Under the pieces are notes generated by a model that was not told the origin of the DNA, searched no databases, and saw nothing but the letters and a program-made list of their open reading frames with translations. A stretch of 64,000 nucleotides of DNA, from assembly GCA_032718475.1 (NCBI GenBank), contig JAUCBJ010001385.1:44457-108456 (forward strand). Reading direction: 5' to 3'. The first letter of the stretch is position 1; each line of letters begins with the position of its first letter. Position numbers and translations under genes: made by a program. Below are positions 3,061-58,200 of the stretch, in pieces. Origin of the DNA: Nemertoderma westbladi (taxonomy: Eukaryota > Animalia > Xenacoelomorpha).

Positions 3061-3064
3061 CCTG

Positions 3065-5260: not shown

Positions 5261-5431
5261 TCTATATATGGGTACAACATATTCTGGTCCGTACCCAAGT
5301 GGTCTGTTTGGCGGCATTATCTTTGCCAGAGGGGCATATCTCTTGCCAATCAACTCGTAATTTCCATCATTAAAATGTTTTCCTTGACCGCACTCTAATT
5401 CTGTTATCAATTTGCGAAGCTCTTCGTCCAT
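5261..5431 (-). CDS. DUF4440/YybH-like NTF2-fold protein, exon 1
   Basis: ATG at 5431, 171 nt, donor AGA|gtgagt at 5261/5260. FNDGNYELIGKRYAPLAKIMPPNRP matches the FN.GD...Y..DA..MPPN.P N-terminal motif. Splices in frame to exon 2 to give 145 aa. Confidence 0.7.
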
Positions 5432-8263: not shown

Positions 8264-8304
8264 TTATCAAAAACAATTGTATTTGTTGTGGTACACCTTA
8301 ATTA

Positions 8305-16160: not shown

Positions 16161-16228
16161 AAGCTTAGCCCAGTTACCTGTCTGCCCCCCCCCCCCCCCC
16201 CGTGTCCCCTACCAGTAAAGTCCCCTAC

Positions 16229-16570
16229 CTGTGCTCTCTCCATTGCTGCCACCAAATCCAACTTGGAGATATCCCACCCGTCAAATACAATATCGTTGGG
16301 GTTTATCATCGGCAGGATATCCTTGAATGGGATATAAATCTCTCCGTCAGGCCCATTGCCTATGCTGATAGTACTCGATTGGGTGAGAGAACCGTAGTAG
16401 TTAGCCTGGACGAGACCCCGCCGAGTCTGCCACTCCAAACCCAGACGGTTAGCAATGGTAGCCGCGGTAACCGTAGTACCGTTGTTGCCGCCCCATCCGA
16501 CGAGCATTACACCGAGTTTAGGAACTTTACGATCGGTTCGAAACTTCATGTTAACAGTTTGTGGCACGAC
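16229..16570 (-). CDS. ISYNA1: Inositol-3-phosphate synthase, coding exon 2
   Basis: [16 protein letters not shown] (NAD-binding), [20 protein letters not shown]; 342 nt with AG/GT boundaries. Confidence 0.96.
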
Positions 16571-25439: not shown

Positions 25440-25739
25440 TTCTTCTATATTTGTATATACCTGTATACAGGTAGGTACTGAGGTATCTCTGTATCTTGTT
25501 CAGTACTGAGCACTACTGCACTAAGCCTGTAAGCTGGCAGGCTGGGTAGTACAGTACTGCAGTACTGCTGTACTGCAGTAGGCTACAAATCCAGTACTCT
25601 GATACCGGCACAGGTACGGTAATATCTGAATATAGGCTACAATAAGGCAGTTTAATCAGCAGACTTTAGTCCAGGAAATTGGAATTGGGGAGGGGGGGGG
25701 GGGGGGGTGGGGGGGATGGTGAGTAACAGGAAAGTATCA

Positions 25740-26489: not shown

Positions 26490-27469
26490 CGGAGCATCAA
26501 GACCAATCGTGCCAGTGGAGTAGATGGAGTGCCCCCTGAGGTCTTTAAAATTCCTGAGTGTTTGGAGCTCATTCACCCCATTATTGTGGACATGTATAGG
26601 ACAAAGAGAAGCCCTCAAGAACTGAAAACAAATAAGTTGGTCCCAGCCCCAGAGAAGGGCAACCAAACAACCCGTGGAACTTTCGCGAATCTCGCTCTTC
26701 TCCATTGCTGCAATAAAGCTATACAATATAATTTTGTAAAATCGCATCAGGGATCCTGTTGAGAGACTCTGTTACGTGGGAACCAAAATGGATTCCATAA
26801 AGGCGTGGAACCCTGTAGCCAATTCTGGCACTTCGAAGGATATTCGAAGAGTTATCAATAAAGAATGACAGATTATTATTATGACAGAATGAAGGACTGG
26901 TTATTATCTTTGTTGACTTCTTTAAAGCCTTTGACTCAGTCTCCCGACCACGTATGTTGGGCACGTATGACCACGGTATGTTGACCACGTATGAGTTCAG
27001 TTCAGCATACAGGGTGCATGTGGGATTGATGAGGAATAAATTATTGCAGCTATCCGATCACTGTGACGATGGTTCCACCACATTTGTGTCTACTGCTGAT
27101 GGTGACACAGATCCATTCGAAATCTTATGGGGAGTTCTTCAGGGTGACACACTTGCACCATTCTTATTCGTGATTGCGCCTGGGGCGAGGTTGATTATGT
27201 TCTACGCATGCCCTTGCTTAGACCATCTAAATAAGGATGGGGGGTGATGGTAACACCCTGTACTAACTGGCACAAGAAGTAGAGGAAATCCAGCAAAGTT
27301 TCTTACTGATCTAGACTTTGCTGATGACTTAGGGGTACTGTCAGAACACTAGAGGGAGCCCAAAGACTCCTGTGCTCATTCCGGAGCAGGTTGCTTCTAG
27401 TGTTTGGTCTTTTTCGACTTCTGCTACTTTGGGATCATGGTTTCGAAAGTCTGGTGAAGAGCATCGGGT
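26490..27469 (+). mobile_element. Degenerate RTE-like LINE RT fragment
   Basis: GVDGVPPE, IFVDFFKAFDSV, GVLQGDTLAPFLF, DFADD. It resumes at ~28665 after an insertion. Confidence 0.85.
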
Positions 27470-32294: not shown

Positions 32295-32868
32295 CACGTA
32301 GTCGGCAAGCCTTGGCATACGGTTCATATAGAGCAAATGAGGCATGTCTAGTTTGGACCCCATATCCAATGCTATAAATGTATTCATTCGATATACAATC
32401 ATATGTTAATCCGCTAGGTGGTGTCAAATTGTTATTCTGCAATTTCGTACTTACCAGTGCAGCACTGTACAGCAGTACCGTACCGGTAGGCCTTTGTCAT
32501 TACTTCTGAGTCTCTAGCGGATCCCCAATTAAATGTCTTAACTTTTCAATTTCGTAAAAGATAGACTTCATGATTCTCTACAGGCCACCAAAATTTCAGC
32601 TCAGGAAAATAAGGCCTTCCCGAGAAATTTAACATTTTCTAAAAACCACATAATCTGTCGTAGCTGACGTCAGACTGCATGATTTTTCACCAAACTTTAC
32701 AAACTTTCTAAACTTTCTCTCTACTACTTACCTACTAAGTTTGGTTCAATTCCGAACCAGCGATGCCAAGAAATTCGCGTTCAAACATTTACCAGACAGA
32801 CAGACAGACAGACGGACATGCCCCATTTGCCCTATATGAACCGTATGCCAAGGCTCGCCGACTACGTG
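32295..32868. mobile_element. Inverted-repeat element with (caga)n-cggacatg, DINE/Helentron-like
   Basis: ~54-bp imperfect inverted repeat 32295-32348 / 32815-32868. It interrupts the decayed 53-bp-related repeats. Confidence 0.6.
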
Positions 32869-39925: not shown

Positions 39926-40629
39926 GGTATCGAACTTAGGTACCTGAACACCTAATAAAATAGCCTCGCCCAAAAATTTACCATATCTTTGTTCAATATC
40001 CTGTTTCAAATTCCATACATTTTCAATAAGATTTGTAGAAAAATTTTCATTCAAGTAAGAAATTATACATTTCGATATATTTTTTGTACCAAAATCTTCT
40101 GAAATTTACATGTTTCCATAAAATAGTATTTACATTCATTTCATAGGGCCGAGTATTTAGTATCCATGGTTATACTCTTGATGCATAGATTATGATTATA
40201 GAACCAAAAAATATGGTGGAGGCTACAAAAATTAACATCAATAAGCACAGAAAAACATATGTAAGATATTATCGAATCTACTTTAATAAGATCCCGGACG
40301 ATTAAACATTTTGTGGTCGTGGTTCATATTATTGCTGTGCTGTTGCACACTAAACGTAACATCTTTTACTTGTAATATTTTTGGCCCTTGTGCGTGTGCA
40401 TTGTGCAACCTGCCTTTTTTCCTATTGTGTCTGGTCTGGGGGGTAAATCCGCCACACACACAGGAGGCCCCACTGGTGGTTAAATCAACCACCCACACGG
40501 GACGCCACTGGGGGTAAATCAGCCACCAGCACGGGACGCCACTGGTCAATTAATTTCGACTGTAAGTTGAAATATTTCAGCAGATCTAGAATTAGTCTTA
40601 CAATTCTAGTTCAAGTGAATGAATAAAGC

Positions 40630-41184
40630 TTTACACATTCAGTGCATGATATGTTCATTACACGTTCAGTGCATGATTTGTTCTTTACACGTTCAGTGCA
40701 TGATCTGTCCTTTACACGTTCAGTGCATGATATGTTCATTACACGTTCAGTGCATGATTTGTTCTTTACACGTTCAGTGCATGATTTGTTCTTTACACGT
40801 TCAGTGCATGATTTGTTCTTTACACGTTCAGTGCATGATCTGATCTTTACTTCATACGTTCAGTGCATGATCTGTTCTTTACACGTTCAGTGCATGATCT
40901 GTTCTTTACTTTACACGTTCAGTGCATGATCTGATCTTTACACATTCAGTGCATGATATGTTCTTTACACGTTCAGTGCATGATCTGTTCTTTACTTTAC
41001 ACGTTCAGTGCATGATATGTTCTTTACACGTTCAGTGCATGATCTTTCCTTTACACGTTCAGTGCATGATCTGATCTTTACTTCATACGTTCAGTGCATG
41101 ATCTGTTCTTTACACGTTCAGTGCATGATATGTTCTTTACACGTTCAGTGCATGATCTGTCCTTTACACGTTCAGTGCATGATC
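40630..41184. repeat. 27/32-bp satellite, left part
   Basis: Unit tgatctgttctttac(tttac)acgttcagtgca. Confidence 0.96.
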
Positions 41185-41722
41185 TGTGACGGGATCCAGG
41201 AGGGATCCCGATTTATCCGATGTGGTATTTAGTCCACGCGTCCCCGCCGTGTATAAGAGTGAAATAAAGATAACTGAGTTCTGAAGTTCGGTGTATAATA
41301 ATAGGTTATAGGATATAGATATACTGTGAATTGTACGGTAGGCGGGATACGGTAACTAAAGTCCCGTGATCCCCTAACTAAACTAATTGGCTGTACCCTA
41401 CGCTAGCACTGCTGCACTGAGATAACTGAATCACTGATTAATAGGTTATTGGTTATATTGCACGGTGGCCTTACTGCTACTCAATCGATGCCATTCCCCC
41501 CTCTGATTGGTTAATACCCTTGTTGGCGCCCCGTGGAGTATTCCCGTTCACTCCACCTGTTCTCTCTGGGTTAGGGGTTTGGCCCCTGACCCTCTATTGT
41601 GTGCTTCCTTCCCACTCTTATTGGGATGGCACGAGTTGGTTAATTGCCCAATCTCGTGGCTCCCAATATTGCTTATCGGCTAATAACTTTATGGGGTGTT
41701 GGCGGGATTGAATAAGCTAACA
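41185..41722 (-). repeat. 3' LTR (538 bp)
   Basis: Direct repeat of 54676-55213; one mismatch found by eye (C41218 vs T54709). Confidence 0.97.
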
Positions 41723-41731
41723 CTCCCCCCC
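41723..41731 (-). other. Polypurine tract
   Basis: GGGGGGGAG on the element sense strand, immediately 5' of the 3' LTR TG. Confidence 0.85.
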
Positions 41732-42431
41732 ATGCTATCTTCCCGGTAAGAAGATAGCATCAACCAAAAAGTGCGTTACAATCCCGCTGGATCCCGATCT
41801 AGTATCGGGTGTGGGGTGGAATTCTTTTCTCTTGGAGCCGGCTTTCCAGGCCGCCCCCTATGGGTATGATATCGCTACCCTGTGTGCCTGGCGTCTCATG
41901 TCGGGCCGATCGCGCTCACCTCTTCACACGACCTTTGTTTCCCCAACACTTTCGCCCTATTTCACCTTCACTCTCACCCTAGCTCTCTCACATTCGGACC
42001 TCCCCGTCCCTTACTCAGCCTCTTATTCTCCCCCCCCCACACTCTAGAATCGCGTCCGCACTCTCTTTGCACTCCACTCTATCACTCCGTCCCTCAACCT
42101 CACTTCGGCTGTTTTATCTCTCCTGACGAACCTCCCCCCCCTCTCGTGCCGTCGCACTCGAGAAGTATGAAATTGTCAGTTGTCTCGTCCATAGTGCCAT
42201 AGTCAGTTATTCCCCCCAGTCCCACTAGCTAGTTGAGAAAGGTTGTATGACTATAGTACTTACTCCAAACGTATGTATTTTACTGCTAATCACTACGTAC
42301 GTACATACAAATTGCACTTATATGATTATTTGCATTAATTAAATTTATACTTAATAGTTCGTACGTTACATGCGGCGCCTTCCAGGCGCACCACTTCCCA
42401 GTCTCAGTCTCATTCCCTCGTCTCCGGGAAC

Positions 42432-44069
42432 TTATCTGTTCCTCCTCACGTCCTCTTCCCTGGCCCGTTTCTTGGTTATCACTGCTCCTCTGGCATCATC
42501 CGCTTTCTGCTTCCGGACCTTCGCTGCCACTTCCTTGCTGATCCCGGTCGTCGGCTCCTTGGGCGCTGGTGTTATTAAAGCCCGATACCGCTTCGCCGGT
42601 GGCCCCTCAGAATGGCCTGGTTGTTTCCCTCGTGTGGCGTCCCATAGGATCATCTTCATTGCCTTTGGTACGTGTTCCGCCAAGAAATCCCTAAACTCCC
42701 TCCGGTTCTCTGGTGTCCACCTGTCCAGGTACCGTTGCGTGTTCATAACTCCGGCGAACGATGCCGCCGTTGCTACCTCTTGATAGGTAAACGGTAACCT
42801 TCGCTTTATAATTTCCATGTGGGTCTCCTGGTTTATGAGGAAGAAACCCCACTTGAACTCTTGGGCCTTCATGCGCTGGCGCGTCATGGCCCCGACGTCG
42901 GCCCACTCCTCGAACCTCGTGAACTTCTCCTCGTCGCTCATCCAGTCGCACTCGCGTCCGTAGTGCCCCCGAAAGTGGCACTTTGGACATCGGTTATGCA
43001 ACCGTGGACACGCCCCCATCCTGTGACTTGGTTCTCTACAATAGAGACAAAAGGTTCCCCGTTGGAACCGGTATAGGCAGCTGCTTTCCCGATGGGTCTG
43101 TCTCCCACAGTAGTCGCAGCCGAGTACCAATGTCTCCCGTCCCACCTCGTCTTTCGTCCCAAGCGATCTCCGCGGTCTATGGAGTCGCTGGTAGGTGAAC
43201 TTCTCTACGTTGCTCTCCCTGTTTACGTCTATCTCTCCGCCCCTTTCGGGCATCGTCTCCCCGAATACTATCCGTGGTGCCGTTCCCGGTTGCTCGCCCA
43301 ACCTGATGGTGCTCCCCGCGAAATCCATCGCCGGCCCCTCGTGCACCCAGGTCCGCTTGCCGGATCTGTTCCAGAAGGCCCTCGCCCCACTGGCCGTCAC
43401 CACCCTTCCGCCAACCCAGTCCGTGTCCGAGTGGCCTATCCTCTCGATGGGCGGTATCTCTCCGAACTCGTCGTCGCCGTCTTCCTCTTCTGGTAGTGTT
43501 TCCAACCCCGGTATCCCGATGGATCCACTATGTCCCTTCCCGCCTTGGCTCTCGCCTGTAGCTCTCCATCCCTCCAGCTCCCTTAGCTTCCTTGGCGGTT
43601 GGTCGCCCTCGGCGCCCGCTGGTATGGGTATCGTGTGCAACCCCGACGTCGACTGTTTCGGCGATCCCACCGTCCATCCCAATTCTCGCCCTAGAGACTC
43701 CCCCGAACTCCCTGACGAAGTCCAATGAAGTTCGTCTAGGCCCGCCTGTTCCTCGAAGCCGTAACTCTGTGCCCTGGCCTCCTCTTCCCTCTCCTCTGCT
43801 TCTATCCTCTCCCGTCTAGCGACTTCTTCCAGTCGCTTTGCTTCTCGTCTGTCCGCCTCTAGCTGCTCCCATCTCTGATACGGTGTATCCGTCTCCCCGT
43901 CTACCAGATGTCGGCTGTTGTAGTACACCGACTCGCCCTTCAGCCCCGGGTGGTCTACCAGACCGTCAAAGGCCACTTTAAAGGCTCTCCTGTAGCTTAG
44001 GGGTGATCCCGATAACAGAAATGCCCCTGGTTCCCTTTCGATAACTACGGTCATGAATAAGTTAAGCAA
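42432..44069 (-). CDS. Extra ORF, C-terminal part: acidic/low-complexity linker plus three CCHC zinc knuckles
   Basis: CDYCGRQTHRESSC, CLYCREPSHRMGAC, CPKCHFRGHYGREC. Separated from the upstream part only by a 25-bp tandem duplication. Confidence 0.8.
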   Translation of the reverse strand: MLNLFMTVVIEREPGAFLLSGSPLSYRRAFKVAFDGLVDHPGLKGESVYYNSRHLVDGETDTPYQRWEQLEADRREAKRLEEVARRERIEAEEREEEARAQSYGFEEQAGLDELHWTSSGSSGESLGRELGWTVGSPKQSTSGLHTIPIPAGAEGDQPPRKLRELEGWRATGESQGGKGHSGSIGIPGLETLPEEEDGDDEFGEIPPIERIGHSDTDWVGGRVVTASGARAFWNRSGKRTWVHEGPAMDFAGSTIRLGEQPGTAPRIVFGETMPERGGEIDVNRESNVEKFTYQRLHRPRRSLGTKDEVGRETLVLGCDYCGRQTHRESSCLYRFQRGTFCLYCREPSHRMGACPRLHNRCPKCHFRGHYGRECDWMSDEEKFTRFEEWADVGAMTRQRMKAQEFKWGFFLINQETHMEIIKRRLPFTYQEVATAASFAGVMNTQRYLDRWTPENRREFRDFLAEHVPKAMKMILWDATRGKQPGHSEGPPAKRYRALITPAPKEPTTGISKEVAAKVRKQKADDARGAVITKKRAREEDVRRNR

Positions 44070-44991
44070 CTACGGTCATGAATAAGTTAAGCAAACTTAT
44101 CATCATCCAGTCCTCCTGCAGGATATATCGCTTCTGATATACCTTTATCGCTCCTCTGCGAAACTGATATACCTCCTGCTTTCCCGGTCTCGCTCCCCAC
44201 TTCAGCGAGTTCGCTAGTTCTGCTCCGTATTCTTCCCTAAACTTCCCCCAATCCATTGGTTTGTGGCATACGAGCCCCAATAATTGGCCCATCGCCACCG
44301 CCCCGCATTGGCCTGAGTTCTCGACCACCCCCAATCCATCCGGTGCCGTCATAGCCATAAAGACTTTCTGCATATCCAGGAGGTTGGTGGCGTCCGGACC
44401 GATGATCCTCTCCGCGTCCTCGCGAATCGCCGATCCCACTTTCGTCGTCGACTTCTCTCTTACTAAGACTTGTACCGCTTTCGGCAGTCGGTCTAATTTC
44501 GGCCCGTCCTTCTTCCCATACGTCCCTAGGTCGAATAAGAAGATGTCCCCATTCGGCGCGGCCAAATGTAGGAGTATGGTCCTGGCCGACCCTGCCGTTC
44601 CTCGTCTTGAACCCGCTTCGTCCTCCACGGTTCCCTCGTCATCTAGGATCATATATCCTCCTCTGTTGACGGACTCTATGAATCTTTTCCAGTCCTTCCT
44701 CGGCGATTCCCTCGGATACTTCGGAATCCCGAACTTCGCTTCGTCCCCTTTCACCACGTAGTGGAAGTGTTGGAAGATCGCGTTGTCCAGCGACGGCGTC
44801 CCGTAGGTCCCGACCAACCGCTGTTCGTGCGCCTCCCGGAAGTGATCCTGCAGCGCTCGTGCCGAGTGACCCCTTTCCAACCTCTCGTAGTATCCTCTCG
44901 TCTTCTCCTCCGGGTGTCTTTCGGTGAAATCCACCAATATCTCTTTTCCTCCTGACTCCGCCTTTCTCTTCCTGATCAGCTTACTCGCCAT
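44062..44991 (-). CDS. Extra ORF, N-terminal part: putative DEDDy (WRN/EXD/Mut-7-like) 3'-5' exonuclease
   Basis: ExoI MILDDEG, LLHLA..IFLFDL, LPKAVQVLV....TKVGSAIREDAERI (ExoII), NLLDMQ, QKRYILQED (ExoIII). First ATG at 44991. Confidence 0.7.
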   Translation of the reverse strand: MASKLIRKRKAESGGKEILVDFTERHPEEKTRGYYERLERGHSARALQDHFREAHEQRLVGTYGTPSLDNAIFQHFHYVVKGDEAKFGIPKYPRESPRKDWKRFIESVNRGGYMILDDEGTVEDEAGSRRGTAGSARTILLHLAAPNGDIFLFDLGTYGKKDGPKLDRLPKAVQVLVREKSTTKVGSAIREDAERIIGPDATNLLDMQKVFMAMTAPDGLGVVENSGQCGAVAMGQLLGLVCHKPMDWGKFREEYGAELANSLKWGARPGKQEVYQFRRGAIKVYQKRYILQEDWMMISLLNLFMTVVA

Positions 44992-45494
44992 TCCGAACAC
45001 TACACTCGCTCACCTGTAGGGTGGTGCCTTACCAAGGCGCAATACAGATGAGTGATGTATTAAGATGTTTCGTACAGTTCGATAATGGCCTAGTTTTCTA
45101 CTTAACTGCGCCTTTCAAGCTTAATTTAATCTAATTAATTTCGGAGCTAGTAAATCAGCCTAATTTACAATTTCCGTCCGTTACTTTTATTATGTTCTAG
45201 AACGACTTTCCTTGCGTTACCACTATTTTCCGATTTTTTTTTTAGCCCTATTCTATTTATTTATTTATTTTGCTTTGATTCTACTGTCCTACTACTTACT
45301 ACTGCCTATGGATTTATTCTATCCTCTGATCCATATTCTGGCCTACTCAGTGGGCCTATGCAGTACAGCAGTATGCGTCGTGTGGCCACACGATTTATCC
45401 AGCTGCACTCATATGCCCCCCTCTCGCTACTAACTCTACTTACTGCTAACTAATATCTATATCCTATTTACCCCTTTTATCTCTCACTCTCTCT

Positions 45495-46025
45495 CTCTAA
45501 CTAATGGTACTACGTACCTACTAACCCTAACTAACTATTGGTACTACGTACCCTCTAACTCTAACTCTAACTAGGTACTACGTACCTACTAACTCTCTAA
45601 CTATCGGTACTACGTACCCTCTAACTAACTAACTATTGGTACTACGTACCCTCTAACTCTAACTCTAACTAGGTACTACGTACCTACTAACTCTCTAACT
45701 ATCGGTACTACGTACCCTCTAACCCTAACTAACTATTGGTACTACGTACCCTCTAACTCTCTAACTATCGGTACTACGTACCCTCTAACCCTAACTAACT
45801 ATTGGTACTACGTACCCTCTAACTCTCTAACTATCGGTACTACGTACCCTCTAACTCTAACTCTAACTAGGTACTACGCACCTACTAACTAACTAACTCT
45901 AGGTACTACGTACCTACTAACTAACTAACTCTAGGTACTACGTACCTACTAACTAACTAACTCTAGGTACTACGTACCTACTAACTAACTAACTCTAGGT
46001 ACTACGTACCTACTAACTAACTAAC
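45495..46025 (-). repeat. Internal ~32-34-bp tandem array of ~16 GGTAC-NNN-GTACC hairpins
   Basis: ggtactacgtacc recurs every ~33 bp with variable (ctaa/ct)n linkers. Confidence 0.92.
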
Positions 46026-46129
46026 TTTTATTTTTATTTTATTTTATTTGTGTGGGAAGGGCGTCTCGCCCTCAATCCCACCCCCCTCAGTCCAAAACTT
46101 GGACGACTAAACTCCACTCTAACTCCGCT

Positions 46130-48700
46130 CTAAGGTGCTCCTTCTAAGAGACAGCATTTACCTACCGCTCTCCTGCAGGTTTTTCTGTCCTTCGCACCTA
46201 TCTTTCCACCTATCCGCACTTCTACCGATCAGACTCTTCCGTCCTCGTCGGAGTAGGTGCCTACAACTCTCGCCAACCGCCATTGGTTGTTGATGATAGT
46301 ATCATCCGTGACGATTACGAGATCTCCCTCTCTTAACTCCCTGTTTGGCTTCCTCCACTTGCTTCGCTTATGGAGCGTGGGTAGGTATTCTTCTACCCAC
46401 CTCCTCCAATACTCTGCGCTTATTGCTTTAGCGACTTTCCAACTCTGGCGGGAATGTATGTCATCTGGGTCTACACCCCGCATATCGATGGTCGCTGGCC
46501 TTTCCATTAGAAAATGGCTAGGCGTCAACACGTCTAATGACTCAGGGTCATCATTCTCCGGATATAGCGGTCTGCTATTAATGATCCCCTCGCACTTCGC
46601 AAGTACTGTTCGTAAAACGTCCTCAGTGACCATGTGGGTGTTCATTAACTTCGTCATTAGACGCTTTGAACTGCCCACCAATCTCTCGACGCATCCTAGT
46701 GTATGTGGTGCATACGGCGTCCTTCTCTCCCACTTTACTTGTCGTCTTCTCATGGCCGCCCTGACTTCTTCTCCTTCTAAGATGTCCAAGGCCTCTGCCA
46801 TCTCACTCTCTGCGCCCACAAAGTTGGTGCCGTTGTCGCTGTATATCACTGCGATCGTCCCACCCTTGCGGTCCCTAAACCTTTCTAAGGCGTTAATGAA
46901 CGCTGATGCGGTTGCATCTTGGGCGAGTTCTATCCCCACCGCCCGCGTATTGTTGCATACGAAGATAATGCCGTAACGTTTCTCCGTGTGTCGCATCACT
47001 TTGATCTTTATCGGCCCGAACATGTCCACACCGCAATGCGTAAATGGCGGGTCGTGCTGTCTTACCCTACTCGCCGGTAGTGGCGCCATCTCCTGTACGG
47101 CTCGCTCCTTCTTCGCTCGTCGGCAGGTCTGGCACTGCCCCACTACCGCTTTCACCTTCTTCCTTAGTTGTTTGACCCAATAGGTCCTCCTTATCTCTGT
47201 GAGGGTTCGGTTGGTGCCCCCATGCAGTATCGATTTGTGGGAGTCCCATATGATCTGGTGTACTATAGGCGATCCTGTGGGAATGATGATGGGTTTAGGT
47301 GGCACGACTATACTGTTGTTATATCCCACCCTAGAATTCATTACTAGAATCCCATCGTAGTTTAGTTGTGGCGACAGCGTGATCAACTCGCTATCTCGTC
47401 GGAGGTGCTGTTGGTTACCGACGCGTTCCACCTCGTCGCCGTAGTTCTTGCGTTGTTCATAGCGGATCACTGCCTTGGCCGCTCCTTCCAGATCTATGGT
47501 TATCCTGGTCTTCTTGTCCTTGCCGACTCCAACAAGGAAGTTCCCAAAGGCTCTCCAGTACGCCACTAGTTTCCTGGTCTTATACCAACTGGAACTGTAG
47601 CTGAGGAGTTTATCCGTCGGGTTATCGCACAGTTCCCTTCCTGGTTGCACGTCCCTAATCTCCCTCACCATCTGGGAGTATATCTCTTCTCCCTCCGAAT
47701 CTCCCTCTTCTCCTTCTGATACTACTTCCGAGCCCGGGTCCACCTTCCTCATCGGCGGCCAGGCCTCCCTATCGCTCAGGAATTGTGGCCCATGTTGCCA
47801 CAATACTTCCTTCTTCAGGAATGTGTGGCGTTCCACGCCCCTCGACAGCAAGTCCGCTGGGTTCTCATCTGTTGGGCAGTAGTGCCACCTTTCCAGTTCT
47901 GTGCTCGCCCTTATTTCGTCCACTCTATTCGCGACGAATATCGGGTATCTCGTCTTTTCATTGTGTAGCCAACCAAGCACTACCATGGAGTCCGTCCAGT
48001 AGTGTGTCTCCACTATGTTGGGAATTGTATCCACTAGGTAGGCTGTGGCTCTAACTCCTAGTCTCGCAGCTGTCAATTCTAACTTGGGAACAGATGCTGA
48101 ATCTGGCGGCGTTGACTTAGCTTTGCTAAAGGCTAGTCTGGGCTTGTGAGGCCCCTCTCGTTGTACTAAATAGAGTGCCGCTCCGTATGCCTCTAACGAC
48201 GCGTCGGAGAACATATGTAAGTCCAGATTCGTCATGTTCCTGTCCGGAAAATACACTCGCGGCATGTTGTATGTTCCCATCCTCTCCAAGTCTCCTGTCC
48301 ATTTGCTCCACTGTTTCTTGATGTCCTCTGGTACCTCTACATCCCATTCATCCTTCAATTTATATACTCTCTTGAGTATCTGTTTCCCCGTGACTAGTAG
48401 TGGGGATGCTAGGCCTAGGGGATCGTATATCCTTGCTATATACGATACATAACCCCTCTTCGTATGGGTGTCTGCGCCCTCCTGGCTCAGCTGATACTTC
48501 AGTTCGTCTGTTTTCCTATCCCACACGATTCCCAATGCCTTCTGCTGGGATTCCGTTCTCTCAATCGCCATGTCCTGTCCTTTGGCTGTTGTAGGGTTGT
48601 CCATGGTCGATCCTGGTTTCTTGTCTTCTATTTCCTTGATAAATTCTTCTGAACTGGATTGGAATTTGGTCAGGTTGAAGCCGGATCCTTTCAGGATGTC
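46130..48700 (-). pseudogene. BEL/Pao pol, second part (RT end, RNase H, integrase, DUF5641-like), with a premature TGA at 46229-46231
   Basis: IYDPLG, HMFSDASLEAYGA, YWTDS, HCGVDMFGP, SDNGTNFVGA, WVEEYLPTLHKRSKW. Past the TGA the frame continues SVEVR..RRAVGKCCLLEGAP* to 46130. Confidence 0.9.
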
Positions 48701-51700
48701 GCCCTGTTTCCAGTATCTCCTCAACCGTATTTCCAGACTCCATACCGTCGTCTACGTAGAAGCCGCGTCGGATCATATCGACGGCCCTACTGCTGTATCT
48801 ATCTTCCTTCCCCTTTACCGTGTCTCTCACTGCCATAGTCGTCGTAAACGAGGACGACTTGGCCCCCATATTTTGTACTACCATCTTATACACTGGTATT
48901 ACCGGCGGTTCTTCTTCGCCGTTATACCATAAGAAGCGTTGACTGTCACTATCTTCTTCCGTTACACGGACCTGGTTGAACATGCCTTCTATGTCACACG
49001 TGAAGGCGTGTTTCCCATTCCTAAATCTAAGTAGTACTTCTATGCCCGAATTGTATATGTTTGGGCCCTCTAGTAGGTAATCGTTTAAGCACTTTCCGTC
49101 GGTCTTTGCCGATGCATCGACTACCATCCTAAGTTTACCTTTCTTTGGGTCTAAAGCTACGTGGAGTGGCAGGTAGTATGTCCTGTCCGTGTTCGGTTCG
49201 TCGACCGGTAACTCCACGGCCCATCCCTTCTCGACGTACTTCTTGATCGTTTTGTGAATGTACTCGTTCTTCTCGGGGCTCCGTTGTAGTGTTTGTTTCA
49301 GCTTGCGGAGTCTCGTGAGTACCATCCCTCTATTATCGGGTAGCGGTATCTTCGGTAGTTTCCATACCATTCCTATTGTATACCGCCCCTCATCACACGT
49401 CATCGATTCCTCCACACTTTGTAGAGCCTGCTTGTCTTCTACCGAGGTCCCGACCCCGGTCTCTTTCAGTCCCTCGAAGTCTTGTCTGAGCAGTCTTTTA
49501 AGCTGCTCCTCTGCTCCCTCATCACCCATTTCCTGCATTGTTCCCGCGAACATGCATCCTGATGTCTCCGACATCCTGAATGGTATCTTGCTCTTAATTG
49601 GACCACTCAGCGTCCACCCGAATGGCGTTAGTATAGCCACCGGGTCGCTCTGCTTGTCTTCGCCGAAGACCGTTTGCATTCTTTCGTGGGCCGTCGGGCA
49701 GTCCATTCCTACTATGATGGATACCTTCCTAACGTCCACGTCTGGGATTGAGAAGTCAATGTTGTCCAGGAATTTGTATTGCTCGACCTCGATGTTGGTT
49801 GGCCGCCTGGCATTGATGTTAATTGACTCTATTACTTGGATGGGGTCGATGGTTGCCCCATAGTCGCATCCTGGTGCCACTGCTGCAATTGCGCACCGTC
49901 CTGTCCTCATCTCTAGGATCTCGTCTTTGCTAGAGATGGTTGTCACCGCCATCCTGCTTGGCCTCGTTCTCAACCCTATTTCTTCGGCTACCCATTCCTC
50001 TACTAATGTGAAGGCAGCTCCACTATCAACCAGCATTAGTGTTGTTACTGATCGATTGCCTTCCCCGATCACTCGTACTGGTACTACTCCAAGTAGCACT
50101 GTTCCTCTCTTCTTCGCCCCTACTGTGCTCGTTGCCATCGTCTGGCCTCTCCTTTGGCCAAACTTGACCGGCTTCTCTTGGCATTCCCTGGCCTTGTGTC
50201 CACTCTTTACACATCGCGAGCAGATTTTATTGCTCGACGCGTAATCTATCTGGTCTTGCCTCGGTAGCGCCTGCCAGTACCTGCAGTTCATGGTTTTATG
50301 AAGCGCATTTGCGTGTAACTGGCATTTGCTCTTTGGGTCGTAGCCCTCTTTATACAATGCGTTGCGTATCGCAGTTATATTTGTACCAAAGTCCCTACTG
50401 TTCTTATTGACTGGATTTGGCCTACTGGACGTACTGGGGTTATGTTTATTCATGTTGTTATTGTTCCCCTGTCCGTTCCATGATGTTGTCTTATCTTCGC
50501 TTGTCTGTGGACTTGCAGTCCCCTGCGTCGCTGCGTATGGCAATGATTGCCTGAGTCTCGGTAACGCGTTCGATGTATTGTGCTCTGGTTTGGGCCTGTA
50601 GTGATCTGTCTTTGGTCCCTTTCCCAGGCTATCTTCACTATAGACTGGGTCCGTTATTAGTTCAGCCTCGTAATTTAAGAAGTTTGACATTTCTTCTAAA
50701 CCTGGTTCCGCACCCTTCTTGTCTCGGGTGGAGAAAGCGATCTTCCTCCATTTGTTGCGCAGCCAGCTCGGTAGTGCCTGCGCTATCGTGGTGATGTTAT
50801 TGGACGCGTTGAGTTCGTATGGCGCGTCTAGCGTCTTCAGCACGATCAGCGCCTTCTCGACTTTGTTAGCAAACGTCTTAATGCTAACGGGGTTATCCTG
50901 TAGGCCACCCGATGTTATGCCTCTCAGCGTCTGCCTGATGATCTTGGCCGGGTGCCCGTATTCCCTATCCAGTGCCCGCCATGCTGTCGTGAAGCCGCCC
51001 TCTATTCCTTGGTATTGCCTCACGATATCGTATGCTGGGCCTCCCGTGTACACTTGTAGATACTTTAGGCACTCCGCCTGCGTCAAGTTTTTTGTTAGTA
51101 TTTCGTTACTATACATTCGCCGAAACTGTAAGTATTCTTCCGGCCTGCTCCCATCGAATTTGAACGGTTCCACGGGTGGTAATTCGATCCTCGTTTTCAA
51201 CGCATCGATCAACGTGGCCATCCCCATTGCCTGCGCTTCTAATGGATTCGACGGGTGCTGTATAGTTTCCCCTGTCTGGTGCGGTTCGTCCGTCCTATTT
51301 CTTGATCTTCTCTGACTCGGATATGTCATCGGGGGTAGCGGCCCCCTCCATATGTCTGTATCACACGACCTGTTTTCATCTAGGGGTCTCGTTGTTCTTG
51401 TTCCTGTCGGGGTATATTGTTGATATTGTGATGGGGGAATGTCACCCTGTCCCCCCCCCACCGGTATGTCTGGTACTGGGGTTGATGTTAATACGTTGGG
51501 GCCCATGCACCTATCCGCAATAATTCCCCCCTCCCCTGGGTATATGTTATGTCCCTGCATGCTGTAGTCATACTGCTGTGCTGGTACCGGTATAGGCCTA
51601 TCAGCTACTGGCCTACTCGCCGGTATGTATTCCGCGACTTCCGGGTTTAATCCCGTTGTCCGCGCTATCCTATCGCCTACATTGCCTCTCTCAGTATGGC

Positions 51701-54596
51701 CTACGGTATGTGCAGTAAGACCTACAGTATGCCCTACAGTCTGCATGTGTTGCTCGGGATCGAAGTTTATTCTTCTCGAATAATCCTCCCCGCGGCTACC
51801 GTATTCTCGATCGGTAGGTATATTCCGTCGGAAAGTTTCTCTTCGACCCCCCTCTCCACTGTTTTCATCTTCGTACCGGTACATTGCGTACCCCTCTCTC
51901 GGCGTGTAATGCGTCTCACCGGATCGCATCCCTCCGGGGCGACGGCAATCTCCCGGAGTCCGACCCCACTGACTCTCCGTTCTCATCTCAACTACCGACG
52001 GCTCGCTGTCCGTCCTCGCTCTTCTATCTTTTGCGGCGATACTTCTACTACTCTCTTCCTCTCTTCTCCTATCAGTGGAATATTCCCGCTCACGAGATCT
52101 CTCGTCGACCTCCCGGTTAAACCCCACTGTTCTTCTTCCCTCCTCTGATTGGGCTCGACGCTCCGTCTGCCCTCCCGCGACGTCAACCTGTCTCTCTCTG
52201 CTCGGTCGCACGCCGCTGGGGATACTCGCGATCCCCCTATTACTTTCCGTCGCCGGTCGTTGCGGTTTACCTATTTCGGCCCTCGCATTATCCGCTGACG
52301 GCTGTGGGACACTCTCTGCCCCCCCCCTCTCGCCGCTAACTCTCTGTTGTGGGGTGCTCGCAGCCCCCCCCCCCCCCCCCCACTCGCTACATCTAACTTC
52401 GCTACCTCTCTCCCCGCTATTATATACCTCTCCAGTCGACACATCCACCCTACCACAGTCGGGTCTATTCACCCCCGCCTCTCCCTCTGCTATTGCGTGG
52501 CCTTCCAGGCCCTCTACTCCCTGCCTACCAACCACGTGGCCTACCAGGCCCTCAGCTCCCTGTCTACTAACTACGCGGCCTACCAGGCCCTCTGCTCCCT
52601 GTCTACTAACTACGTGGCCTACCAGGCCCTCTGCTCCCTGGTTACGTAGGCCCGACGTGTTTACATTAATAGCACCCACATTGGAAACGGAATTAATTTG
52701 CTCATTTGAAACAAAATCATTTGTATTATTCTGCGCGACTACGCTATCTGACTTATTTTGTAAATTCGGGCTAAGATCATTATTTGAATTATTCGAATTA
52801 TTCTGTGTAATTGTGTTATTTAAGTTATTTTGTAGGTCCGAATTCGGATTATTATTTTGATTATTTGAATTATTTTGCGTAACTACATCAACATTAGGGT
52901 TATTTTCTACATTAGTATTGGGATTGTTCTGATTTAAATTTAAATTACTACCACTAGGCAAAGTATTTCCTGCAATAAAGGTTTGATTAGTGTTATCCCA
53001 TACGGTACTATTAATATCAACAATGTCTACTGTACCATTATTATTACCCCCCCCGCCCGTACGGTCGCACCAGTTTTGGGTCTGTCGTGCGGTCCCTGTC
53101 AGTGGAGTATTAATAAATATATCTACGGCCCTCGGCTCCTCAAAAATACTCGAGCCGGCCCCGCTTTCAGACGGCAACACTCGGACCAATTCCAGCTCGT
53201 GCGCCCGTCTAATCTTATTTTTTGCCGATACACCTTGGCGTTTCTCTAATTCCCTTAACTCTCGCTCAGCCTTTGCCCCTCTCTCCTCACTCTCCTGGCT
53301 GTCCCGTCTGGCCGACTCTACTACACTCCTAGCGTTCTCCCTTCGTCTCGCCTCACGTTCTTTGCGTTCCTTTTCCTTTCTTGCCTCATATTCCTTGCGT
53401 TCCTTTTCCCTTCTCGCCTCACGTTCCTTGCGTTCCTCGTCCTCCCTTGCCTCACGCTCTCTGCGTTCCCTTTCCTCCCTAGCCTCACGCTCTCTACACT
53501 CCTTTTCCTCTATTTCGTCACTCTCCCTAAGGCTCCTCAAAGCCCTTTCGACCCTCTCACCGTTCTCTTTAATCAATGCCGCTTCCCTCGCTAACCGCGC
53601 TCTCCCTTCCTCTAGCCGTTCCTCCATTTCCTTCTGACCTTGCTCTGCCACGTCGAGGCGGTATGCGGCACCTATCTCTCTCACCACTCTTTCTTTCGCG
53701 GAGGATGTAACAGACTTATCGGTTACGACGGACTTCCCCCGCCTTCCCGACCTACTAACTTTCCCCGGCCTCCCGGAGCTTTCTCCGACCGACGAGGCCG
53801 AATCCTCGGGGTTAACCTCGGATTCGCCCCCTTCGAGTCCCCTCCAACCCACTGGTTTTACTCCCCGGGCATCGACCAAGTATGGCCCTATGTACACTGG
53901 CGCTACACTAGGTTCCATACTCCCACACTCCCATAGTTCAAACAGTTCGCCGGCTATCCTTTCTGCTCTCTCCCCGGCCAGTTCTCTCTGCCCAAAACGT
54001 ATTAGGTAATTTAAGTGTCTATCCGACTCACCTAGTCGCTTTCTCAGTCTCACCTCGTCTACCTTCGCCCCTTCCTTCTTGGCGTCGTTTATCAGCTTCC
54101 GGGTCGCGTTGTAGGCCCGTCGAAGTCGCTCAGAAACCCCGACGTCCTCGTCGCCGACCTCTCCTCCGTCCCTCCGGGTTCGACGTCGTACCGGCGGCTC
54201 CACCGTCGCCGTTCCGGTGGGCCGTCCGTCGCCCTCGGCCTGTAGCTGGCCGGCGACATCGGTACCGATCTCTCCTCCGTCTCTTCGTGTCCGGCGTCGC
54301 ACCGTCGGCCCCACCGTCGCCGTTTCGGTGGGCCGCCCGTCGCCCTCGGCCGGTAGCTGGCCGACGACATCGGCGCGCCGTTCTCCCTCCCGTGTCGACT
54401 CGTCTCCATCTCCCTCCATCTCGCTCTCTTTCTCTCTTGGTTCGACTTCGGGTTCCAGGCCCTCCTCGTCCTGGACTTCCGGTTCGCCCGTTGTCGATGG
54501 CTCCGGCGTCGTGGGCCTGTATCGCTTGGTCGCGGCCTCGCGGATCGTTAGGTCTTCGTCCGGGGTCCGCGTCGGTGTCTCGCCCGATTCACTCAT
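48561..54596 (-). CDS. BEL/Pao gag-pro-RT polyprotein, first part (frameshifted just after YVDD)
   Basis: DUF1759-like FDGS.PEEYLQF, knuckle CSRCVKSGHKAREC, protease LVDSGA, RT YYLPLH..KLRMVVDAS..DIEGMFNQV..FYVDD. Confidence 0.92.
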   Translation of the reverse strand: MSESGETPTRTPDEDLTIREAATKRYRPTTPEPSTTGEPEVQDEEGLEPEVEPREKESEMEGDGDESTREGERRADVVGQLPAEGDGRPTETATVGPTVRRRTRRDGGEIGTDVAGQLQAEGDGRPTGTATVEPPVRRRTRRDGGEVGDEDVGVSERLRRAYNATRKLINDAKKEGAKVDEVRLRKRLGESDRHLNYLIRFGQRELAGERAERIAGELFELWECGSMEPSVAPVYIGPYLVDARGVKPVGWRGLEGGESEVNPEDSASSVGESSGRPGKVSRSGRRGKSVVTDKSVTSSAKERVVREIGAAYRLDVAEQGQKEMEERLEEGRARLAREAALIKENGERVERALRSLRESDEIEEKECREREAREERERREREAREDEERKEREARREKERKEYEARKEKERKEREARRRENARSVVESARRDSQESEERGAKAERELRELEKRQGVSAKNKIRRAHELELVRVLPSESGAGSSIFEEPRAVDIFINTPLTGTARQTQNWCDRTGGGGNNNGTVDIVDINSTVWDNTNQTFIAGNTLPSGSNLNLNQNNPNTNVENNPNVDVVTQNNSNNQNNNPNSDLQNNLNNTITQNNSNNSNNDLSPNLQNKSDSVVAQNNTNDFVSNEQINSVSNVGAINVNTSGLRNQGAEGLVGHVVSRQGAEGLVGRVVSRQGAEGLVGHVVGRQGVEGLEGHAIAEGEAGVNRPDCGRVDVSTGEVYNSGERGSEVRCSEWGGGGGAASTPQQRVSGERGGAESVPQPSADNARAEIGKPQRPATESNRGIASIPSGVRPSRERQVDVAGGQTERRAQSEEGRRTVGFNREVDERSREREYSTDRRREEESSRSIAAKDRRARTDSEPSVVEMRTESQWGRTPGDCRRPGGMRSGETHYTPREGYAMYRYEDENSGEGGRRETFRRNIPTDREYGSRGEDYSRRINFDPEQHMQTVGHTVGLTAHTVGHTERGNVGDRIARTTGLNPEVAEYIPASRPVADRPIPVPAQQYDYSMQGHNIYPGEGGIIADRCMGPNVLTSTPVPDIPVGGGQGDIPPSQYQQYTPTGTRTTRPLDENRSCDTDIWRGPLPPMTYPSQRRSRNRTDEPHQTGETIQHPSNPLEAQAMGMATLIDALKTRIELPPVEPFKFDGSRPEEYLQFRRMYSNEILTKNLTQAECLKYLQVYTGGPAYDIVRQYQGIEGGFTTAWRALDREYGHPAKIIRQTLRGITSGGLQDNPVSIKTFANKVEKALIVLKTLDAPYELNASNNITTIAQALPSWLRNKWRKIAFSTRDKKGAEPGLEEMSNFLNYEAELITDPVYSEDSLGKGPKTDHYRPKPEHNTSNALPRLRQSLPYAATQGTASPQTSEDKTTSWNGQGNNNNMNKHNPSTSSRPNPVNKNSRDFGTNITAIRNALYKEGYDPKSKCQLHANALHKTMNCRYWQALPRQDQIDYASSNKICSRCVKSGHKARECQEKPVKFGQRRGQTMATSTVGAKKRGTVLLGVVPVRVIGEGNRSVTTLMLVDSGAAFTLVEEWVAEEIGLRTRPSRMAVTTISSKDEILEMRTGRCAIAAVAPGCDYGATIDPIQVIESININARRPTNIEVEQYKFLDNIDFSIPDVDVRKVSIIVGMDCPTAHERMQTVFGEDKQSDPVAILTPFGWTLSGPIKSKIPFRMSETSGCMFAGTMQEMGDEGAEEQLKRLLRQDFEGLKETGVGTSVEDKQALQSVEESMTCDEGRYTIGMVWKLPKIPLPDNRGMVLTRLRKLKQTLQRSPEKNEYIHKTIKKYVEKGWAVELPVDEPNTDRTYYLPLHVALDPKKGKLRMVVDASAKTDGKCLNDYLLEGPNIYNSGIEVLLRFRNGKHAFTCDIEGMFNQVRVTEEDSDSQRFLWYNGEEEPPVIPVYKMVVQNMGAKSSSFTTTMAVRDTVKGKEDRYSSRAVDMIRRGFYVDDGMESGNTVEEILETGRHPERIRLQPDQIPIQFRRIYQGNRRQETRIDHGQPYNSQRTGHGD

Positions 54597-54675
54597 CTCG
54601 TTTGTGGCTGATGATTCGGCTAGCTAGGTTGCAGTTCTTAGAGTTTAACTAGGGCGGCAGCTCGGTTTTAGTTAC

Positions 54676-55213
54676 TGTGACGGGATCCAGGAGGGATCCC
54701 GATTTATCTGATGTGGTATTTAGTCCACGCGTCCCCGCCGTGTATAAGAGTGAAATAAAGATAACTGAGTTCTGAAGTTCGGTGTATAATAATAGGTTAT
54801 AGGATATAGATATACTGTGAATTGTACGGTAGGCGGGATACGGTAACTAAAGTCCCGTGATCCCCTAACTAAACTAATTGGCTGTACCCTACGCTAGCAC
54901 TGCTGCACTGAGATAACTGAATCACTGATTAATAGGTTATTGGTTATATTGCACGGTGGCCTTACTGCTACTCAATCGATGCCATTCCCCCCTCTGATTG
55001 GTTAATACCCTTGTTGGCGCCCCGTGGAGTATTCCCGTTCACTCCACCTGTTCTCTCTGGGTTAGGGGTTTGGCCCCTGACCCTCTATTGTGTGCTTCCT
55101 TCCCACTCTTATTGGGATGGCACGAGTTGGTTAATTGCCCAATCTCGTGGCTCCCAATATTGCTTATCGGCTAATAACTTTATGGGGTGTTGGCGGGATT
55201 GAATAAGCTAACA
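54676..55213 (-). repeat. 5' LTR (538 bp)
   Basis: Sense strand TGTTAG...GTCACA; direct repeat of 41185-41722. Confidence 0.97.
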
Positions 55214-58200
55214 TGATCTGTTCTTTACTTTACACGTTCAGTGCATGATCTGTCCTTTACACGTTCAGTGCATGATCTGTTCTTTACTTTACACGTTCAG
55301 TGCATGATCTGTCCTTTACACGTTCAGTGCATGATTTGTTCTTTACACATTCAGTGCATGATTTGTTCTTTACACGTTCAGTGCATGATCTGTTCTTTAC
55401 ACGTTCAGTGCATGATCTGTTCTTTACTTTACACGTTCAGTGCATGATATGTTCTTTACACGTTCAGTGCATGATCTGATCTTTACTTTACACGTTCAGT
55501 GCATGATCTGTTCTTTACTTTACACGTTCAGTGCATGATATGTTCTTTACACGTTCAGTGCATGATCTGATCTTTACTTTACACGTTCAGTGCATGATCT
55601 GTTCTTTACTTTACACGTTCAGTGCATGATATGTTCTTTACACGTTCAGTGCATGATTTGTTCTTTACACGTTCAGTGCATGATCTGTCCTTTACACGTT
55701 CAGTGCATGATCTGTTCTTTACTTTACACGTTCAGTGCATGATATGTTCTTTACACGTTCAGTGCATGATTTGTTCTTTACACGTTCAGTGCATGATTTG
55801 TTCTTTACACGTTCAGTGCATGATTTGTTCTTTACACGTTCAGTGCATGATCTGTTCTTTACTTTACACGTTCAGTGCATGATCTGTTCTTTACACGTTC
55901 AGTGCATGATCTGTCCTTTACACGTTCAGTGCATGATTTGTTCTTTACACATTCAGTGCATGATTTGTTCTTTACACGTTCAGTGCATGATCTGTTCTTT
56001 ACTTTACACGTTCAGTGCATGATCTGTTCTTTACTTTACACGTTCAGTGCATGATCTGTTCTTTACACGTTCAGTGCATGATTTGTTCTTTACACGTTCA
56101 GTGCATGATCTGTTCTTTACTTTACACGTTCAGTGCATGATCTGTTCTTTACTTTACACGTTCAGTGCATGATCTGTTCTTTACACGTTCAGTGCATGAT
56201 CTGTTCTTTACTTTACACGTTCAGTGCATGATATGTTCTTTACACGTTCAGTGCATGATCTGTCCTTTACTTTACACGTTCAGTGCATGATCTGATCTTT
56301 ACTTTACACGTTCAGTGCATGATCTGTTCTTTACTTTACACGTTCAGTGCATGATCTGTTCTTTACACGTTCAGTTCATGATCTGTCCTTTACACGTTCA
56401 GTGCATGATCTGTTCTTTACACGTTCAGTGCATGATCTGTTCTTTACACGTTCAGTGCATGATCTGTCCTTTACACGTTCAGTGCATGATCTGATCTTTA
56501 CTTTACACGTTCAGTGCATGATCTGTTCTTTACACGTTCAGTGCATGATCTGTTCTTTACTTTACACGTTCAGTGCATGATATGTTCTTTAAACGTTCAG
56601 TGCATGATCTGTCCTTTACACGTTCAGTGCATGATCTGATCTTTACTTTACACGTTCAGTGCATGATCTGTCCTTTACACGTTCAGTGCATGATCTGTCC
56701 TTTACACGTTCAGTGCATGATCTGTCCTTTACACGTTCAGTGCATGATCTGTTCTTTACACGTTCAGTGCATGATCTGTTCTTTACACGTTCAGTGCATG
56801 ATCTGTTCTTTACTTTACACGTTCAGTGCATGATCTGTTCTTTACACGTTCAGTGCATGATCTGATCTTTACTTTACACGTTCAGTGCATGATCTGTTCT
56901 TTACACGTTCAGTGCATCATCTGTTCTTTACTTTACACGTTCAGTGCATGATCTGTTCTTTACACGTTCAGTGCATGATCTGATCTTTACTTTACACGTT
57001 CAGTGCATGATCTGTTCTGTACACGTTCAGTGCATGATCTGATCTTTATTTTACACGTTCAGTGCATGATCTGTTCTTTACACGTTCAGTGCATGATCTG
57101 TCCTTTACACGTTCAGTGCATGATCTGTTCTTTACACGTTCAGTGCATGATCTGTTCTTTACACGTTCAGTGCATGATCTGTTCTTTACTTTACACGTTC
57201 AGTGCATGATCTGTTCTTTACTTTACACGTTCAGTGCATGATCTGTTCTTTACACGTTCATTGCATGATCTGTCCTTTACACGTTCAGTGCATGATATGT
57301 TCTTTACTTTACACGTTCAGTGCATGATCTGTTCCTTACTTTACACGTTCAGTGCATGATCTGTCCTTTACACGTTCAGTGCATGATATGTTCTTTACAC
57401 GTCCAGTGCATGATCTGTCCTTTACACGTTCAGTGCATGATCATTCCTTTACACGTTCAGTGCATGATATGTTCATTACACGTTCAGTGCATGATCTGTT
57501 CTTTAGTTTACACGTTCAGTGCATGATCTGTTCTTTACTTTACACGTTCAGTGCATGATCTGTTCTTTACACATTCAGTGCATGATCTGTTCTTTACACG
57601 TTCAGTGCATGATCTGTTCTTTACTTTACACGTTCAGTGCATGATATGTTCTTTACACGTTCAGTGCATGATCTGTCCTTTACACGTTCAGTGCATGATC
57701 TGATCTTTACTTTACACGTTCTGTGCATGATCTGTCCTTTACACGTTCAGTGCATGATCTGTTCTTTACACGTTCAGTGCATGATCTGTTCTTTACACGT
57801 TCAGTGCATGATCTGTTCTTTACTTTACACGTTCAGTGCATGATCTGTTCTTTACTTTACACGTTCAGTGCATGATCTGTCCTTTACACGTTCAGTGCAT
57901 GATATGTTCTTTACACGTTCAGTGCATGATCTGTCCTTTACACGTTCAGTGCATGATCTGTCCTTTACACGTTCAGTGCATGATATGTTCTTTACTTTAC
58001 ACGTTCAGTGCATGATCTGTTCTTTACTTTACACGTTCAGTGCATGATCTGTCCTTTACACGTTCAGTGCATGATATGTTCTTTACACGTTCAGTGCATG
58101 ATCTGTCCTTTACACGTTCAGTGCATGATCATTCCTTTACACGTTCAGTGCATGATATGTTCATTACACGTTCAGTGCATGATCTGTTCTTTAGTTTACA

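Follow-up and report, generated by a model that had tools for sequence, protein, structure and literature searches.

In bdelloid rotifers, the long terminal repeat (LTR) retrotransposons Juno and Vesta and the Athena/Terminon elements carry a third open reading frame (ORF3) for a DEDDy-type exonuclease (PMC5408684; PMC6431247), and an earlier note on the DNA studied here had mentioned such ORFs in LTR elements of these animals. On the basis of the rotifer work, a review counts DnaQ-like domains among the known accessories (PMC6338049). The present work concerns a 64,000-nucleotide stretch of Nemertoderma westbladi DNA (assembly GCA_032718475.1, contig JAUCBJ010001385.1, positions 44,457 to 108,456, forward strand), referred to as the window. 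It contains a 14,029-bp BEL/Pao-type LTR element on the minus strand (55213-41185), and this element hosts a third gene that is likely to encode a highly diverged DEDDy exonuclease domain followed by three CCHC zinc knuckles. The gene belongs to a large and diverse family and is under purifying selection.

The ORF3s of Juno, Vesta and Athena share with the present gene a separate sense frame after pol that replaces env, the DEDDy type, which is likely for the present gene, one change of Asp to Glu and the lack of a membrane helix. Nevertheless, the rotifer ORF3 hosts are gypsy-like and no BEL/Pao member is reported in the available parts of PMC5408684, whereas the element described here is BEL/Pao-type. 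The rotifer proteins display strong homology in HHpred, while the present domain, compared with them by description, is far more diverged (PMC5408684). No knuckle array is described for the rotifer proteins in those parts, in contrast to the three CCHC knuckles found here. In the same way, rotifer env and GDSL ORF3s show mostly neutral variation within a genome (PMC5408684), whereas the present gene shows a clear excess of synonymous variants.

A closer architectural parallel than the candidates of the earlier note is RNase D of Trypanosoma brucei (TbRND, PDB 7C42 series), whose C-terminal CCHC fingers contact RNA at a distance of 5-9 nt from the 3' end and whose overexpression lowers guide RNAs (PMC7797062). 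Both proteins place a 3'-5' exonuclease domain, a likely one in the present case, ahead of tandem CCHC fingers in one chain, and TbRND is the top Foldseek match of the structure model presented below. TbRND is cellular and mitochondrial and has four fingers after a 28-residue linker, whereas the present protein has three knuckles at a distance of about 300 residues, and identity is 16-18%; the likeness is probably convergent. The exonuclease domains of WRN, EXD2, Nibbler/Mut-7, EXD1, Egalitarian and RICE1, which are of the PF01612 group, share with the present domain the order and spacing of motifs as well as KVG-x5-D and Q-x2-Y-x5-W, and most of them reach Z-scores of 11-13 against the model that was fed with an alignment. 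They differ from it by an identity of 10-22%, by inserts after ExoI and before ExoIII and by its Glu in the Asp column of ExoIII, and no subfamily stands out.

[quoted passage not shown] The present element has in common with them LTRs of the form TG...CA, a target duplication, a polypurine tract, typical Pfam domains and the order gag, protease (PR), reverse transcriptase (RT), RNase H (RH) and integrase (IN), but is 14.0 kb long and lacks a tRNA-type site, and its third gene is something other than env. Self-priming has been described for Tf1/sushi and for some copia lineages (PMC4600332; PMC6317226). The primer sites of Tf1 and Tj1, like the candidate site here, pair with the element's own LTR; in those elements the 5' end of the mRNA serves as primer, whereas here the pairing segment would end about 75 nt past the start deduced from motifs.

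In the literature searched, which left supplements, Repbase and subscription papers outside its scope, no BEL/Pao exonuclease gene and no fusion of an exonuclease with knuckles in a transposon was found. The word "exonuclease" is absent from the available main text of the BEL/Pao survey PMC3118150 and likewise from that of PMC12440569. DEDDy third genes themselves were already known; what is new here is the superfamily, BEL/Pao, and the architecture of exonuclease plus knuckles. The rotifer DEDDy ORFs have been left without evidence of function or selection in the available parts of PMC5408684, and the present locus brings in another superfamily and a synonymous excess across many copies.

A third gene in two pieces

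The third gene follows pol and precedes the 3' LTR; it has the same sense as gag-pol and consists in this copy of two ORFs in different frames.

44062..44991, minus strand: piece A, 309 residues from the ATG at 44991; an N-terminal part of about 110 residues and a likely DEDDy domain (D117, E119, D192, Y289, E293/D294)
42432..44069, minus strand: piece B, 545 residues from stop to stop; a charged stretch, a linker rich in G, P and S, three CCHC knuckles and a basic tail
44043..44092, no strand assigned: exact 25-bp tandem duplication (44043-44067 = 44068-44092), site of the frame break

The earlier note had described two sense ORFs meeting at this duplication in a BEL/Pao element, and the coordinates and the repeat were verified; Pfam domains and the mapping of the LTRs (the 3' one at 41722-41185) likewise confirmed the position of the gene in a BEL/Pao-type element. 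In public sequencing runs, the junction is bridged with 25 letters fewer by one contig of run X5 (organism B; possibly an RNA run), with 6 other differences over 339 positions, and by one contig of run X6 (organism A, another study), with 47 other differences over about 404. For the DNA runs X1 and X3 no bridging contig is listed; contigs end loosely at 44069 and 44068, and the depth drops. Because two sister contigs span the junction without the extra 25 letters, the break of the reading frame is most likely confined to this copy. The same contigs across the junction suggest that pieces A and B are one gene; both were analysed as separate sequences throughout, and the 844 residues of a repaired ORF are a prediction of the earlier note. 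A programmed frameshift at the junction was also considered and was rejected because of the sister contigs, which lack the additional 25 letters.

At roughly 45030-45010 (minus strand) lies a stretch rich in pyrimidines, which closes with CAG some 24 nt upstream of the ATG (44991) and is adjoined by GT motifs. We take the former to be a candidate splice acceptor and the latter to be donor-like.

Piece A as a probable, diverged DEDDy exonuclease

The earlier note had read piece A as a DEDDy nuclease of WRN/EXD2/Mut-7 type with ExoI, ExoII and ExoIII motifs. Their order and positions stand: LDDEG at residues 116-120 (44646-44632), KVGSAIRED at 184-192 (44442-44416) and YILQED at 289-294 (44127-44110). 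The canonical Y-x3-D of ExoIII does not, as E293 occupies the Asp column and D294 comes one residue further. ExoI reads MILDDE, in which D117 and E119 close a hydrophobic strand that is present in the alignment-fed model. An alignment by MAFFT with 50 WRN-like domains, a set named for its best PDB matches (WRN, EXD2 and Mut-7), ran from end to end and placed D117, K184, G186, D192, Q286 and Y289 on invariant columns. The motif triple, whose patterns were composed after viewing the query, was absent from all 100,000 shuffles and present in 40 of the 50 WRN-like controls.

Profiles were built from bacterial PF01612 domains with the query left out. The profile of all 73 bacterial domains matched piece A at P = 4.9e-4 (1 of 1000 shuffles equal) and that of the 50 WRN-like domains, the best single group, at P = 2.2e-4 (again 1 of 1000), while the combined profile of 123 domains reached P = 2e-5, equalled by 0 of 1000 shuffles. 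Reversed piece A and piece B gave no score against the profiles. In the ESM Atlas, a Werner-like exonuclease cluster ranked third at 0.90, after two unnamed clusters, which is a lead and not a proof; PF01612 is found on 38% of its members, and 10 of the 10 best family-bearing matches belong to the same family or clan.

Structure prediction, which the earlier note had proposed as a check, was run on piece A alone. When AlphaFold was fed the WRN-like alignment, the model had a predicted local distance difference test score (pLDDT) of 73 and a predicted template modelling score (pTM) of 0.71; the pLDDT was 84-91 for the greater part of the core and 46-64 for model residues 121-190. Its best Foldseek match was T. 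brucei RNase D (E 5e-5), and VIA gave a best Z of 13.4 with a root-mean-square deviation of 2.9 over 164 aligned residues. All of the listed structure matches of this model are DEDD-type, and its fold neighbours include Nibbler, EXD1, RICE1 and Egalitarian; a family missing from these lists is not thereby excluded. The top Z-scores tie across groups (13.4-12.2 for WRN and polymerase proofreading domains). The DEDDy type proposed by the earlier note is likely from profiles and Atlas, whereas the subfamily that it named is not distinguishable from other DEDDy groups, since the structural Z-scores tie.

Several results weigh against this assignment. AlphaFold failed on the single sequence (pLDDT 31), and the alignment-fed model is circular and shows compatibility only, because its input alignment imposed the family. 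In the MAFFT alignment, the ExoIII Asp column holds a Glu, with the Asp adjoining, and E119 lies off the ExoI Glu column. Profiles of single groups were weak for RNase D (n=32), short forms (n=28) and Pol I (n=13), with P of 0.04-0.06. The local profile match is limited to residues 135-216, with ExoII inside and ExoI and ExoIII outside, and hmmalign left the latter two unplaced. A P of 2e-5 would amount to an E-value of about 0.5 in a Pfam-sized search, although the family had been named beforehand, and hhalign returned E 0.033 with a probability of 1.5%. The Atlas match shares 160 of 256 features, below the 170 typical of true family members. No relative of piece A was found in Pfam and NCBIfam, among PDB sequences or by word-index searches at near and longer lengths, nor, beyond a repeat artefact, by phmmer over 1.84 billion proteins. 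Finally, of the 20 best loci from 401 bacterial genomes that were searched blindly, not one was matched on a DEDDy gene. With these points taken into account, a DEDDy fold of piece A is still held to be very probable, and the piece is likely a highly diverged DEDDy exonuclease, as predicted from motifs and profiles.

Comparison of piece A with viral contigs, genome contigs and phages gave no relative. The repeat artefact, P0001, is a 14-fold repeat protein matched over 19 residues and was the sole phmmer match; it was rejected. A plasmid match was a DUF305 gene at E 3 and is due to chance. The only DEDDy gene among the 20 bacterial loci (locus L226) is the opposite-strand neighbour of a chance match.

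Zinc knuckles in piece B

The three knuckles, each of the form CX2CX4HX4C, occupy 43118-43077, 43049-43008 and 42989-42948 (minus strand), where the earlier note had seen them. Among 20,000 shuffles of piece B, at least two knuckles occurred in none and one knuckle in two. The roughly 300 residues between the exonuclease domain and the knuckles are charged at first and then form the linker rich in G, P and S. The Pfam knuckle matched piece B at E 0.1, Atlas leads to assorted CCHC clusters scored 0.76-0.87, and a word-index search found no homologue of the piece. Of the likeness to Air1/2 and ZCCHC adaptors suggested in the earlier note, the link to Air1/2 amounts to a weak Atlas lead (0.82). 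The basic tail of piece B is presumably similar to a nuclear localisation signal.

An env identity was rejected, in agreement with the earlier note. No membrane helix was detected in either piece, the highest 19-residue hydropathy being 1.3 in piece A and 1.24 in piece B, and no Pfam env family matched.

Sister copies and purifying selection

Sister copies were seen as short contigs of public runs; five runs were compared, and six of the seven listed contain the stretch or part of it. The DNA runs X1, X2 and X3 (two samples, two studies) yielded from 4,105 to 8,939 short contigs that are 85-100% alike and cover all 30 bins of 41190-45480. Because thousands of similar contigs span the whole gene region, the extra gene belongs to a large, diverse family.

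Variant tables comprised the best-supported rows, namely 40 of 383 in a first set (26 within the pieces) and 40 of 176 in a second (all within the pieces), with three places in common. In the first set, synonymous changes made up 5 of 6 for piece A and 14 of 20 for piece B; the second set gave 27 of 32 and 5 of 8, respectively. Within piece A, the second set divides into 15 synonymous of 16 in the exonuclease part and 12 of 16 in the part N-terminal of it. About 30% would be expected to be synonymous, and wrong-frame controls on the 40 rows of the second set gave 3/40 and 10/40. These counts are of sites and not of independent events, and are distinct from a codon-model estimate. No stop codon was found among the listed variants in pieces A and B. 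The synonymous excess is large, and the extra gene is under purifying selection. The earlier note had considered that the gene might be absent or decaying neutrally in sibling copies; contig coverage and the synonymous excess speak for the contrary.

Architecture of the element and its primer site

The element is flanked on both sides by a 5-bp target-site duplication and has the following parts besides the third gene.

54676..55213, minus strand: 5' LTR, 538 bp, TG...CA, one difference from the 3' LTR
48561..54623, minus strand: gag-pol frame 1, first ATG at 54596; a long extension at the N terminus, DUF1759, zinc knuckle, aspartic protease, RT as far as YVDD
46229..48751, minus strand: pol frame 2; remainder of RT/RNase H (Peptidase_A17), integrase H2C2 and core, shortened DUF5641
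45493..46026, no strand assigned: tandem array, some 16 copies of 32 bp, within the 1.2-kb spacer that separates pol from the extra gene
41723..41731, minus strand: polypurine tract abutting the 3' LTR
41185..41722, minus strand: 3' LTR, 538 bp

The domain order gag-PR-RT-RH-IN is that of BEL/Pao, and Pfam E-values were 2e-40 for Peptidase_A17, 4e-19 for DUF5641, 1e-12 for Integrase_H2C2, 8e-11 for DUF1759 and 6e-5 for the protease. The RT YVDD motif stands at 48758 and the frame breaks soon downstream (48751-48561); DUF5641 is cut by a stop at 46231-46229, so that profile residues 2-72 of 94 are matched. This copy is therefore disabled at three places, after the RT YVDD, near the end of the integrase and in the extra gene. 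It is young, since its LTRs differ at 1 of 538 positions, though pol is broken twice, a point on which the earlier note is silent; recent mutation and assembly error both fit the breaks in pol. The search with pol found one 1.5-kb metagenome contig with a 34%-identical integrase fragment, which ends ahead of any third gene, and no relative of pol was found among viral contigs. A scan of the element against Rfam gave nothing at E up to 1.

The part of Gag before DUF1759 (54596-51150, minus strand) is unusually long, about 1,150 residues, and this N-terminal region contains internal repeats of 111, 33 and 39 bp, a charged stretch and an Asn-rich stretch. The 32-bp array in the spacer could act as an enhancer or an RNA signal.

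The 30 nt that follow the 5' LTR contain no TGG. The primer-site position is as follows.

54667..54675, minus strand: first 9 nt after the 5' LTR, pairing perfectly with LTR 363-371 (54851-54843)

A match as good as this one was reached by 32 of 20,000 shuffled LTRs. The 9-nt core stands within a longer stem that joins 54675-54636 with 54880-54843 (minus strand; z -2.3 and -3.1), and the element may be a candidate for self-priming. The LTR has TATAA at position 266 and TCAGT at positions 286, 294 and 303, which we take to be a TATA box and initiator-like motifs; a 5' RNA piece ending at LTR 371 would reach about 75 nt from the start that these motifs predict. Neither AATAAA nor ATTAAA was found within the LTR. 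A primer made by splicing from the LTR was considered and rejected, as no junction was better than the unspliced 9-nt match. By its protein domains, the element would be of BEL/Pao type, atypical in primer site and size; it is so labelled because a tRNA-type primer site is absent while the domains are typical of the family.

Proposed function and competing explanations

In the mechanism proposed, the third gene would be read from its own message, either spliced or internally started, and its product would be a DEDDy-type enzyme that trims RNA from 3' to 5'. The three zinc knuckles would grip single-stranded RNA during trimming, and the target would be the small RNAs of host silencing or their precursors. 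The parts of this proposal differ in strength. By analogy with trypanosome RNase D, knuckle-assisted trimming of RNA with a working two-metal site appears fairly probable. That the enzyme acts on host small RNA, and so counters silencing, is a tentative assignment and the least supported part, even if it ranks first of the proposed functions. It does so because most BEL/Pao elements manage without such an added gene, and because several fold neighbours act in small-RNA pathways, such as Nibbler, EXD1 and RICE1. A further reason is the proposal, so far unconfirmed, that a WRN-like protein suppresses silencing in plants (PMC8062710).

Some considerations detract from this proposal. The gap of about 300 residues between domain and knuckles far exceeds the 28-residue linker of RNase D. 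In addition, the methylated 3' end of mature PIWI-interacting RNAs (piRNAs) resists such enzymes. The full picture, in which a large, tRNA-independent BEL/Pao lineage encodes a knuckle-guided RNA trimmer convergent with trypanosome RNase D that destroys host piRNA precursors or finishes a self-made primer, is possible but doubtful as a whole. If piRNA precursors were indeed destroyed, the protein would be an enzymatic anti-silencing factor of an animal retrotransposon. The present case includes an RNA-binding module built into the protein, which has a solved cellular parallel in TbRND, and makes it testable on one protein domain whether enzymes of animal retrotransposons are directed against small-RNA silencing; the likely self-priming site offers a second, competing test.

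This second test bears on the alternative that survives best, although it remains rather unlikely, namely that the enzyme acts on the element's own RNA by cutting a self-made primer back from its 3' end as far as the edge of the duplex between LTR and leader, or by maturing packaged RNA. The missing tRNA-type site and the pairing of the leader with LTR 363-371 inside a longer stem agree with such a role, but the gene and a self-primer site have been seen together in one element only, and the primer of Tf1 is made by RNase H alone. For the rotifer DEDDy ORFs, Rodriguez et al. suggested 3'-end processing of element RNA (PMC5408684), in keeping with this alternative.

It is less likely again that the domain retains its fold with little or no cutting activity and serves, in the manner of Egalitarian or EXD1, as an adaptor or decoy that binds the RNA of the element and localises or shields it. 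Both proteins are among the fold neighbours, a Glu stands in the Asp column of ExoIII, and the three knuckles, the charged stretch and the basic tail would suit such a role, as would the example of Maelstrom and EXD1, inactive DEDD derivatives that still bind RNA (PMC5408684). Nevertheless, acidic residues are found at or beside all four positions and the Tyr is retained; moreover, rotifer ORF3s with a D-to-E change (DEED) are called possibly active (PMC5408684).

Proofreading of reverse-transcription products or trimming of cDNA ends by a DNA exonuclease, which comes last of the three functions put forward in the earlier note, is improbable. Such an activity would benefit a genome of 14 kb, which exceeds the family's 4.2-10 kb, and WRN and polymerase proofreading domains tie at the top structural scores (Z 13.4-12.2). 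However, the gene is separate and outside Pol, the sister copies are very diverse (80-100% alike), and knuckle arrays usually indicate RNA.

An equally improbable view, which takes piece A for a conserved orphan domain with some other fold and its motifs for a coincidence, accords with the empty blind searches, the failed single-sequence model and the hhalign probability of 1.5%, but conflicts with the agreement of query-independent profiles and Atlas on a family named beforehand and with a motif triple seen in 0/100,000 shuffles and 40/50 WRN-like controls, even if its patterns were post hoc.

Surroundings of the element

A 27-bp satellite surrounds the inserted element and extends to either side of it, at 40629-41187 (about 20 copies) and at 55228-64000 (more than 300 copies, running past the end of the window). 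Large arrays of 36, 68, 21, 53 and 70 bp are found elsewhere in the window. An uninterrupted frame at 24573-25499 (minus strand) contains a full Brix domain (E 1e-43) and is an intronless host gene or a retrocopy, and 16112-16594 (minus strand) is an exon of a myo-inositol-1-phosphate synthase gene (E 4e-40). At 3002-3580, 18425-19231 and near 26492-26608, there are fragments that we take by eye to resemble ORF2 of non-LTR retrotransposons; some of them are related to one another as inverted pairs. Finally, inverted arms of 54 nt, 94% complementary and 466 nt apart, at 32295-32868 are possibly those of a miniature inverted-repeat transposable element.

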